From assembly GCA_021791335.1 (NCBI GenBank), contig JAJYWS010000061.1, forward strand, positions 22,924 through 86,923: 64,000 bases of DNA, given 5' to 3'. Both the position numbers and the translations under genes were made by a program. Shown here one piece after another: positions 54,037 to 55,440 of the stretch (position 1 is the first letter of the stretch; every line of letters begins with the position of its first letter). The notes under the pieces were generated by a model, which was not told where the DNA came from, searched no databases, and saw nothing but the letters and a program-made list of their open reading frames with translations. Source of the DNA: Thermoplasmata archaeon (GTDB lineage: Archaea; Thermoplasmatota; Thermoplasmata; Lutacidiplasmatales; UBA184).

Positions 54037-54229
54037 CACCCCGCTGGATTCCGGAAGGCCACCGGGCCCCGGACGCGGAGGGCGCCTCCGGGGGGGCCGA
54101 AACGACGCCCCGGCCCCCTCCCCGGCCCCTGGGCTGGTCCGCCGACGTCCGGGAAGAGCCCCGGTCACGGCCCCGGGCCGTGGTGCCGGGACAAACCGTT
54201 ATCTGTCCGCCTCGGCATCCGCCGGCCGT

Positions 54230-54336
54230 AGCCCCGTAGTGTAGTGGCCAATCATGCGAGACTCTGGATCTCGCGACGCAGGTTCGAACGCCGTGGAAGG
54301 ACCCGACTCCACGCGCCGAAACTCCTGCCGGGGCTA
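54230..54336 (+). tRNA. tRNA-Gln (anticodon CUG) interrupted by a 34-nt intron in the T-loop
   Basis: Acceptor AGCCCCG pairs perfectly with CGGGGCT (54329..54335), discriminator A. Anticodon stem CGAGA/TCTCG with loop CTCTGGA. T-stem GCAGG (54278..54282) pairs with CCTGC (54324..54328) only if ~34 nt (54289..54322) are removed; those 34 nt contain the hairpin CGTGGA..TCCACG. Confidence 0.7.
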
Positions 54337-54544
54337 CTCGGGAAGCAGGGATCACGAGCCTATGCGGGGGTGCTCCAGTTCGGCCAACCCGCTCGACCGT
54401 CGGACCGGTCGGGCCGGGCCACCGAGGCAGGGCTTAGGACCCTGTTGCCTAGGGCATTCGCCGGTTCAAAGGGACGGCCGGGATCTCCCGGCCGCCGGAA
54501 TCTCCGGCCCCCCGCACGGGCGCGTCGAGCGGAACGAGGCGCCG

Positions 54545-55440
54545 TGATCGACCGATCGGAGGAGTTCCTGCCTCCGGCCGCGATCGCCCGGCTGGAACCC
54601 GAGGAGGCGGACGCTCTCCTCGACCGGCTCGAGGCCCGGGTCCCCACCCATCCGACGCTCCTCCCCATCCCCTCGGCCGACGCACCGGCCCTGGTCTTCG
54701 GCGACACCCACGGGGACCTCCCGTCGGTCGAGGCGGTCCTCGAGGAGTGGCATCAGGGCCCGACGGACCAGATCCTGATCGGGCTCGGAGACTACGTCGA
54801 TCGCACTCCCCCGGACGTGCCGAACGGATCGGTCCTCAACGCGCTCTACCTCCTCCAATGGGCGGCCCGGTTTCCGGAACGCGTCATCCTGCTCACCGGT
54901 AACCACGAACTCGCGCGACAGATACCGGTGGTGCCGTCGGACCTTCCCGCGGAGATCGATGACCTATGGGGCCCCGGCATCGAGCGGCAGCTGAGGATCG
55001 CCCACCTGCTCGAGCGCGGCCCGCTCGCGGCCTACACCGAGAGCGGCGTTTTCCTCGCGCACGCCGGGTTTCCCCGGCGCCGCCCCCGGGGCGACTGGAC
55101 CAAGGCGTTCGACCGTCCGAGCGAGGAGACGGTGGCCGAGGTCGTCTGGGCCGATTGCGGCGCCTCCGAGAGCCGTCGGAGGGTCGTCCGGGCCTTCACG
55201 GAAGCGGACCTCGACCGCTTCCTCGCCGACTCTAGCCTGGTGGGACTCCTGCGGGGCCACGACCCGGACCTCACCGGCCGGCGGGTCTTCCACGACCGCT
55301 GCCTGACCCTCCACACGACCCGGTACTTCGCCGAGTATGGAGGGGTCCTGGCGGCCCGGGTCCCCTTGGGGGCCCGGCTGGCGTCGCTGGCCGACGTGGC
55401 GCTGGTCCCCCTGACTCCGGCCGCGCCGACTACGGAGTGA
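54545..55440 (+). CDS. PPP-family serine/threonine protein phosphatase (calcineurin-like metallophosphoesterase)
   Basis: GDTHGD, GDYVDRT and GNHE motifs. Start is the GTG at 54545; the upstream part of track ORF 54244..55440 overlaps tRNA-Gln and is rejected. Confidence 0.8.

Follow-up and report, generated by a model that had tools for sequence, protein, structure and literature searches.

Positions 54230-54336 of the 64,000-nt stretch of archaeal DNA analysed here (part of contig JAJYWS010000061.1, assembly GCA_021791335.1, from a Thermoplasmata archaeon of the order Lutacidiplasmatales, UBA184; hereafter the window) very probably constitute a functional tRNA-Gln(CUG) gene that is interrupted within its T-loop by an intron of the bulge-helix-bulge (BHB) class. 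An initial annotation of the window had proposed a tRNA-Gln(CUG) with a 34-nt intron at this place, and its coordinates, its stems and the length of the insert have proved right. The case is built on the recovery of a canonical tRNA once the insert is deleted, on the strict BHB geometry of the two exon-intron junctions, and on the conservation of the interrupted gene throughout an order-level clade. In the sections below, we set out this evidence and the points that weigh against it, and then turn to a neighbouring tRNA-Leu(UAG) gene with two introns, to the transcriptional setting of the pair, and to an open reading frame (ORF) that runs across both tRNA genes.

Anatomy of the tRNA-Gln gene

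The anatomy of the gene can be read directly from its sequence (coordinates of all features are collected in Table 1). The acceptor stem pairs AGCCCCG (54230-36) with CGGGGCT (54329-35) and is followed by the discriminator A54336, with no CCA encoded; the D-arm reads GTGT-AGTGGCCAA-TCAT, and the anticodon arm, CGAGA-CTCTGGA-TCTCG, places the anticodon CTG at 54264-66. The T-stem, GCAGG (54278-82) with CCTGC (54324-28), encloses 41 nt, not 7, and the intron within it carries a hairpin of its own, CGTGGA (54292-97) with TCCACG (54308-13). When 54289-54322 are deleted in silico, ARAGORN calls a 73-nt tRNA-Gln(ctg) in which all stems are perfect, and the T-loop restored by the 59/60 junction is TTCGAAT; the exon junction expected in the spliced RNA is GGTTCGAA joined to TCCTGCC. 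The spliced molecule has an A1-U72 pair, which is typical of archaeal tRNA-Gln. Where the initial annotation had left the site of the intron at either 59/60 or 60/61, the former stands and the latter falls, because among the possible 34-nt deletions the 59/60 junction is the only one that fits BHB geometry.

The gene is, as had been claimed, missed in the absence of an intron model. At the unspliced locus ARAGORN makes no call with or without its -i option for anticodon-loop introns, its three other tRNAs in the window all lying elsewhere, and Rfam returns no match there, not even a partial tRNA, even at E<=1. ARAGORN had itself been put forward as a means of checking the locus, a role for which it is unsuited in that it cannot detect the unspliced tRNA-Gln. 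A group I or group II self-splicing intron was considered and rejected: the insert measures 34 nt, against the hundreds of nucleotides of a ribozyme core, and has no Rfam match at E<=1.

Bulge-helix-bulge structure of the precursor

The junctions of the tRNA-Gln gene form a strict hBHBh' motif of 3-4-3 geometry, in which two 3-nt bulges lie on opposite strands around a 4-bp helix, H. Helix h is the T-stem (GCAGG/CCTGC, 5 bp); helix H (TTCG/CGAA) arises from the pairing of intron nucleotides CGAA at 54317-54320 with T54-G57 of the T-loop (54283-54286); and the bulges are AA/C and AC/T, each splice site, marked by the slash, falling after the second bulge nucleotide. Helix h' is made up of GC/GC plus CGTGGA/TCCACG, the descending strand running TCCACG and then GC with C54314 bulged out between them. 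The hairpin that the initial annotation had described as compatible with a BHB-like substrate is present, and the motif to which it belongs is the strict form.

Folding of the precursor, which had been proposed as a check, agrees with this arrangement, in that both the thermodynamic and the comparative predictions recover the T-stem, the 4-bp helix, the bulges and h'. For the 107-nt precursor, the unconstrained minimum free energy (MFE) structure shows the acceptor, anticodon and T-stems together with the UUCG/CGAA helix, the bulges and the intron hairpin; in it the hairpin is stacked directly on the 4-bp helix, with AA(C) and ACU unpaired, and the strict 3-4-3 form lies 1.2 kcal/mol above it. 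RNAalifold, applied to 24 orthologues, gives the same hBHBh' as the consensus structure.

Taking the steps of maturation from the established archaeal pathway, the T-stem, as helix h, would stack on helix H (U54-U55-C56-G57 with the intron CGAA), and h' would stack on its far side; the splicing endonuclease EndA would then cut after the second nucleotide of each bulge, a ligase of the RtcB type would join the exons to give the T-loop UUCGAAU, and RNase P, RNase Z and the CCA-adding enzyme would complete the tRNA.

Conservation of the interrupted gene

The distribution of the interrupted gene was followed in two scans. The first was a pattern search of species-representative genomes that required GGTTCGAA, CGAA and CC, and it returned at least 119 loci, most of them false positives, namely tRNA-Gln genes of bacteria that happen to have CGAANNNCC further downstream. 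Among the matches listed, the gene, again with a 34-nt insert at this site, occurs in 23 metagenome-assembled genomes (MAGs) of Thermoplasmata (Lutacidiplasmatales/TMEG-type); the carriers include Candidatus Lutacidiplasma silvani AcS3-62 and UBA184 (for the order, see PMC9287336). The flanks of these 23 loci keep the gene order of the window at ~70% nucleotide identity to it. One assembly, GCA_027377055.1, is of the same species as the window (99.7% identity), and the tRNA-Gln precursor is identical on four same-species contigs from different samples. Over the 24 species formed by the window and the 23, identity is 99.6% in the exons and 48% in the intron interior, the intron is always 34 nt long, and exon 1 is unchanged except at one A/G position.

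The second scan covered a metagenome collection of 241 million records and specified the exon sequence only. It yielded at least 120 contigs with the interrupted gene and, among them, 95 distinct introns, of which 94 are 34 nt long and all 95 have both the strict 3-4-3 motif and a G-C pair as the first of h'. The bases opposite U54-G57 are CGGA in 47 of these introns, CGAA in 41, CGGG in five, and TGGA and CGAG in one each; the variants of the H strand are separated only by A<->G or C<->U exchanges, all of which preserve Watson-Crick or G.U pairing, and precursor positions G61 and C87, like the H strand, vary solely in pairing-compatible ways, while identity in the intron interior is 48-53% across samples. 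An exact intron-less tRNA-Gln has no match in the 241 million records, against the at least 120 interrupted copies. With the identical interrupted gene in 23 genomes among the matches listed and in this number of metagenome contigs, chance is excluded by far as its explanation.

The pattern also bears on whether the locus might be a decaying or insertion-disrupted pseudogene, from which the 34 nt are never removed and whose functional counterpart lies elsewhere. Such a history would agree with the failure of standard detectors to see a tRNA here, but it sits poorly with exons that hardly vary at all across an order-level clade in which the flanking genes share only ~70% nucleotide identity, with the strict BHB in 95/95 variants of the insert, with the absence of uninterrupted copies from the metagenome collection beside at least 120 interrupted ones, and with the conserved promoter-like box that precedes the gene, and we regard it as very improbable.

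Against a functional gene with a BHB intron, several points have to be set. The fold of the whole precursor is unexceptional in comparison with shuffled sequences (z = -1.48), so that thermodynamics alone would not make the BHB case; hairpins folded from the individual introns have a mean of 9 bp and a z of about -1.6. For the distal part of the intron hairpin the pairing score is 0.65, against 0.62 for shuffled partners and 0.71 in a register shifted by -1, and since its G/C-rich arms pair in two registers, the covariation is weak and we do not claim it. The proximal 3 bp of h' are nearly invariant, and the core of the motif, being invariant, gives no covariation evidence either. In the first scan, moreover, the motif columns were conserved by construction, because the pattern demanded them, and only the second scan is unbiased. 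A tblastn search with Methanocaldococcus jannaschii EndA (checked against PDB 1A79) found no match, either in the window or among retrieved loci totalling 1.86 Mb, and no ligase gene was located in the same sequences. Lastly, the cleavage and ligation of the tRNA-Gln precursor are steps that we infer.

Outside the Thermoplasmata, the first scan, whose pattern forced part of the motif, also listed tRNA-Gln(CUG) genes with an insert at T-loop 59/60, 29-50 nt in length, from Micrarchaeota, Aenigmatarchaeota, Woesearchaeota and a Methanosarcinales MAG. These inserts could go back to an ancient shared intron or could mark a recurrent insertion site.

A neighbouring tRNA-Leu gene with two introns

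In all orthologous loci, a conserved block, GCGGGGGTGCTCC, follows about 27-36 nt downstream of tRNA-Gln, and in the window this block belongs to a tRNA-Leu(UAG) gene which the initial annotation did not contain. Unspliced, it is missed by both ARAGORN and Rfam in the window, and ARAGORN calls an 86-nt class-II tRNA-Leu(tag) solely after both of its inserts have been removed. The gene is found downstream of tRNA-Gln in 23/23 genome loci, again among the matches listed, and in 114 of the 115 metagenome contigs long enough to judge.

Its D-loop intron has a helix H of 4/4 bp (GGCC/GGCY) and 3-nt bulges in 22/22 loci. In its T-loop intron, helix H sets UUCA opposite GGRR (54465-54468 with 54497-54500) and achieves 3/4 bp, the base opposite A57 being G in 23 of the 24 species and U in the remaining one; as judged from these pairings, the T-loop motif is slightly relaxed and not strictly canonical. 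The spliced junction expected for the T-loop is GGTTCAAA joined to TCCGGCC. The D-loop intron is missing from three of 114 pooled loci. In two species, L043 (782-888 region) and L082 (5091-5197 region), the tRNA-Leu just downstream has no D-loop intron and reads GGCCAA/CGAGG, the slash here marking the junction; these two loci, intron-less at exactly the predicted position, are a natural control for the intron model. This presence/absence polymorphism is, separately, useful for dating the gain or loss of the intron. A custom scan produced six further candidates for tRNAs with T-loop inserts; none gives a tRNA after splicing, and they were put down to chance.

Among the archaeal splicing endonucleases, the alpha4 and alpha2 forms need the strict 3-4-3 motif, and the (alpha-beta)2 and epsilon2 enzymes also take relaxed ones (PMC3239211). 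The initial annotation had treated the tRNA-Gln intron as an indicator of the type of endonuclease in this organism, which it is not: a strict motif is accepted by every archaeal EndA architecture (PMC3239211) and therefore carries no information on the type. The strict motifs that we assign to two of the three introns would fit an endonuclease of narrow specificity, and for the Thermoplasmatales, cultured relatives within the Thermoplasmatota, endonucleases of the alpha'2 type are listed (PMC5829648).

Transcriptional setting and the downstream phosphoesterase gene

An AT-rich box with the consensus gcAACGTTTATCAac stands ~27-37 nt upstream of tRNA-Gln in 23/23 orthologous loci, in surroundings that diverge, and is the putative archaeal promoter of a tRNA-Gln/tRNA-Leu unit. 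Since no such box occurs in the spacer before tRNA-Leu, co-transcription of the two genes is likely, and they are probably transcribed together from the conserved TATA-like box. Nor is there an AT-rich box in the gap of ~17-45 nt between tRNA-Leu and the start of the next gene, which encodes a calcineurin-like phosphoesterase (Metallophos); this suggests a single transcript for both tRNAs and possibly also for the Metallophos gene. A scan for sigma-70 promoters and intrinsic terminators, which was not designed for archaea, gave nothing. The last two bases of the spacer and G1 of tRNA-Leu spell ATG (54362-54364); for the U at -1 of tRNA-Leu, a preference of RNase P or pairing with A73 could account equally well.

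The initial annotation had called the ORF that begins at 54244 an artefact, a verdict that holds for its upstream 100 codons, which are spurious, and not for its last 298 codons, which are a real Metallophos gene. That ORF 54244-55440, of 398 aa, might instead be a genuine phosphoesterase with an extended N-terminus, the tRNA features being coincidental, finds its one encouragement in the frame that stands open from 54244 in the window, and the evidence against it is as follows: the Metallophos Pfam domain begins only at residue 149; gene callers place a 298-aa Metallophos protein on four same-species contigs, starting at GTG 54544; the phase of Metallophos relative to tRNA-Leu is random (37/33/29 across 99 loci); and the extension meets stops inside or downstream of tRNA-Leu in 70/99 orthologous loci. 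The random phase and these stops identify ORF 54244-55440 as the real gene over-extended by ~100 codons upstream, and a truly extended phosphoesterase can be dismissed as improbable in the extreme. An over-extension of this kind, here through both tRNA genes (54244-54543, + strand), is a typical high-GC artefact. Upstream of the locus lies an ABC-transporter permease gene on the minus strand; downstream, the Metallophos gene is followed by genes for Tsr3 and a DeoC-family aldolase on the minus strand.

An open frame across both tRNA genes

A frame of 97 codons opens within tRNA-Gln and closes at the Metallophos start (Table 1). Its behaviour was analysed over 114 distinct pooled loci (L013-L243), with 109 or 107 loci entering the individual counts on the frame. 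Among the 114, the Gln-Leu spacer measures 18, 24, 27, 30, 33 or 36 nt, the Leu D-loop intron 0, 24, 27, 30 or 33 nt, with 35 nt in the window species only, and the Leu T-loop intron 32, 35 or 38 nt. The indels are thus multiples of three, the sole exception being the 35-nt D-intron of the window species, where the resulting 8-nt frame shift is compensated by a stop at +28. The tRNA-Gln intron, by comparison, is 34 nt long in 114/114 full Gln-Leu loci, while the spacer and the Leu introns vary in length.

Read from the ATG in tRNA-Gln, the frame reaches its stop 0-33 nt past the end of tRNA-Leu in 106/109 loci, and likewise in 24/24 species genomes, and its median length is 91 codons; counted from the first base of tRNA-Gln, no single frame is open over the entire distance, owing to a TAG in the D-arm. 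In the variable segments this frame meets a single stop, and the other two meet 39 and 14; shuffling of these segments leaves the frame open in 46 +/- 5 of 107 loci, compared with the 106 in which it is found open. In this frame, 105/107 loci have a stop in the first 33 nt after tRNA-Leu, compared with 13 and five in the others, and because the terminal stop takes 24 different states of position and codon, it is not simply inherited. It falls between -1 nt (an ATGA overlap) and +25 nt relative to the predicted Metallophos start. As a side observation, in 105/107 loci the codon at the 5' edge of tRNA-Leu, which belongs to the conserved frame, is GTG, ATG or TTG.

The frame shows no sign of selection at the protein level. 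The GC content of the frame at codon positions one, two and three is flat (0.77/0.69/0.78, against ~0.7/0.5/0.89 in the real genes of the window); substitution entropy is likewise flat over codon positions, with no third-position excess, and the ratio of synonymous to nonsynonymous changes, 12:24, is about neutral. Gene callers do not report the frame on the four same-species contigs, Pfam gives no match, and in 5.8 billion clusters the searches returned a single similar predicted protein, a weak one. Across the clade the frame is kept open, and a conserved protein is not supported.

One way to understand it is that the locus is used twice, the unprocessed transcript being also translated from 54254, with selection, across an order of Thermoplasmatota, keeping the frame translatable whatever its peptide; the benefit might lie in coupling translation to the Metallophos gene, to which ribosomes would be delivered, or in protecting transcription into it. 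Such a use would complement the explanation of the inserts as introns and would not exclude it, and it would lead one to expect that the tRNA introns and the spacer change length solely in multiples of three. The triplet indels, the 106/109 open frames, the bias in stops, the excess over shuffled segments and the 24 stop states all speak for it; the gap between tRNA-Leu and Metallophos looks too short, and is without an AT-rich box, for a separate promoter; and coupling by termination and reinitiation is documented in archaea (PMC6728339). On the other hand, the flat GC content and entropy and the ratio of 12:24 weigh against it; the ORF goes uncalled, lacks a Pfam match and has a single similar predicted protein among 5.8 billion clusters; translation would require ribosomes to start within very stable tRNA structure and to pass through it; the counts overstate the independence of loci that are phylogenetically related; and the distance from stop to start, 11-25 nt in most loci, exceeds the overlaps or very short distances that termination-reinitiation is reported to require (PMC10666635). 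We therefore offer the double use of the locus tentatively, as a proposal somewhat likelier to be wrong than right. Selection for translatability up to the Metallophos start is nevertheless the most economical reading of the frame signature, held with the same less than even confidence. A weaker version of that reading is that the fixed 34-nt length of the tRNA-Gln intron may reflect a constraint beyond the BHB motif; we know of no need of a BHB intron for a fixed length.

Table 1. Coordinates of the tRNA-Gln/tRNA-Leu locus and of related features (positions refer to the window unless preceded by a locus name)
Feature	Position	Strand	Remarks
BRE (B recognition element)/TATA-like box AAACCGTTATCTG	54193..54205	+	TTATC at -31..-27 from the tRNA-Gln 5' end
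tRNA-Gln exon 1	54230..54288	+	acceptor 5' strand, D-arm, anticodon arm, variable loop, T-stem 5' strand, T-loop nt 54-59
tRNA-Gln BHB intron, 34 nt	54289..54322	+	T-loop 59/60; removal gives back a canonical tRNA
Parts of the tRNA-Gln intron	i1 C54289; h' hairpin 54290-54316; CGAA 54317-54320; AC 54321-54322	+	
tRNA-Gln exon 2	54323..54336	+	T-loop nt 60 (T54323), CCTGC, CGGGGCT, discriminator A
Gln-Leu spacer, 27 nt	54337..54363	+	no promoter-like box
tRNA-Leu(UAG) precursor, 153 nt	54364-54516	+	27 nt 3' of tRNA-Gln; absent from the initial annotation
tRNA-Leu exon 1	54364-54387	+	
tRNA-Leu intron A, 35 nt	54388-54422	+	D-loop/D-stem boundary, 21/22
tRNA-Leu exon 2	54423-54470	+	anticodon 54435-54437
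tRNA-Leu intron B, 32 nt	54471-54502	+	T-loop 59/60
tRNA-Leu exon 3	54503-54516	+	
97-codon open frame	54254..54547	+	ATG at tRNA-Gln nt 25-27; TGA 54545-54547 overlaps the Metallophos GTG
Metallophos (calcineurin-like phosphoesterase), 298 aa	54544..55440	+	GTG start
Non-Thermoplasmata tRNA-Gln loci with inserts	L015:3675-3777, L031:6164-6267, L026:5166-5288, L119:7624-7725, L067:686-797		scan forced part of the motif

Significance

Both tRNA-Gln(CUG) and tRNA-Leu(UAG) are essential, and in a widespread archaeal order of soil and peat both are invisible to ARAGORN and Rfam; where genes escape the finders in this way, inferences on MAG completeness and on codon usage require a tRNA search that allows for introns. 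The locus further provides a clean comparative data set on the persistence of non-canonical tRNA introns in a lineage of euryarchaeote grade, offering more than 100 variants of three introns, with presence/absence polymorphism in one of them and, in the tRNA-Gln intron, a fixed element of which no intron-less copy was found and which occupies the same site as the inserts in the tRNA-Gln genes of DPANN archaea and Methanosarcinales. The conserved G.A in the T-loop intron of tRNA-Leu poses a testable question about the substrate, and a translatable frame conserved over tRNA genes would, if true, connect the expression of tRNA and mRNA in a way not described before.

Comparison with known systems

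The E. coli tufB operon is a tRNA-mRNA co-transcript. On a speculative reading, the present locus resembles co-transcripts of the tufB type in that its tRNA genes lie directly 5' of a protein gene, too close to it for a separate promoter. It also resembles, equally speculatively, the coupled archaeal gene pairs of the ATGA/TGATG kind, in which the stop abuts or overlaps the next start (PMC6728339). In the known coupled pairs, however, the upstream cistron is an ordinary protein gene, whereas here the frame runs over two tRNA genes and their introns and shows no detectable protein-level selection.

As to the introns themselves, BHB introns outside position 37/38, including at 59/60, are established in archaea (PMC4090602). 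The pre-tRNA-Cys(GCA) and pre-tRNA-Pro(GGG) of ARMAN-2 (Candidatus Micrarchaeum) have introns at 59/60 (PMC3239211), which share with that of tRNA-Gln the T-loop site and the protein-spliced BHB class, and the ARMAN-2 tRNA-Pro has more than one intron, as does tRNA-Leu here. They belong, however, to a different lineage and to different tRNAs, and the ARMAN-2 tRNA-Cys intron, at 13 nt, is of the relaxed hBH form and needs the broad-specificity epsilon2 enzyme, in contrast to the 34-nt intron with its strict 3-4-3 hBHBh' described here. The tRNA-Gln(UUG) of Haloferax volcanii has a 31-nt intron at the canonical 37/38, the position of all H. volcanii introns (PMC2584109); it, too, interrupts a tRNA-Gln of a euryarchaeote-grade organism, with a nearly perfect hBHBh' and a similar size, but uses the anticodon stem as helix h, where the intron in the window would use the T-stem. 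A haloarchaeal affinity of the window, to which its high GC content might point, was rejected, the relatives of the locus being Thermoplasmata.

The census made with tRNAscan-SE 2.0 (PMC8450103 Table S7) counts 25 non-canonical introns in 144 euryarchaeal genomes, among them six in three genomes of Methanomassiliicoccales, with one gene having two, and one in five genomes of Thermoplasmatales, and none in the 30 genomes of Halobacteriales. Methanomassiliicoccales and Thermoplasmatales are the closest published relatives to share this type of feature, for which the table gives counts only. The multi-intron tRNAs of Thermoproteales, Thaumarchaeota and others (PMC8450103; PMC4090602) are similar in having several non-canonical introns per gene or locus, in D- and T-arms, that are invisible to ordinary finders; they differ in that their lineages are reported to have broad-specificity (alpha-beta)2 endonucleases and many relaxed motifs, whereas here two of the three motifs are of the strict form and a single conserved G.A marks the third. 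The genome paper on the Lutacidiplasmatales ran tRNAscan-SE and makes no mention of tRNA introns (PMC9287336). Non-canonical BHB introns at 59/60 are, in sum, already known, and non-canonical introns are known also in the wider Thermoplasmata; what is added here is a tRNA-Leu with two introns, conservation across an order together with an intron-less control, and the signature of a reading frame overlying both tRNA genes.

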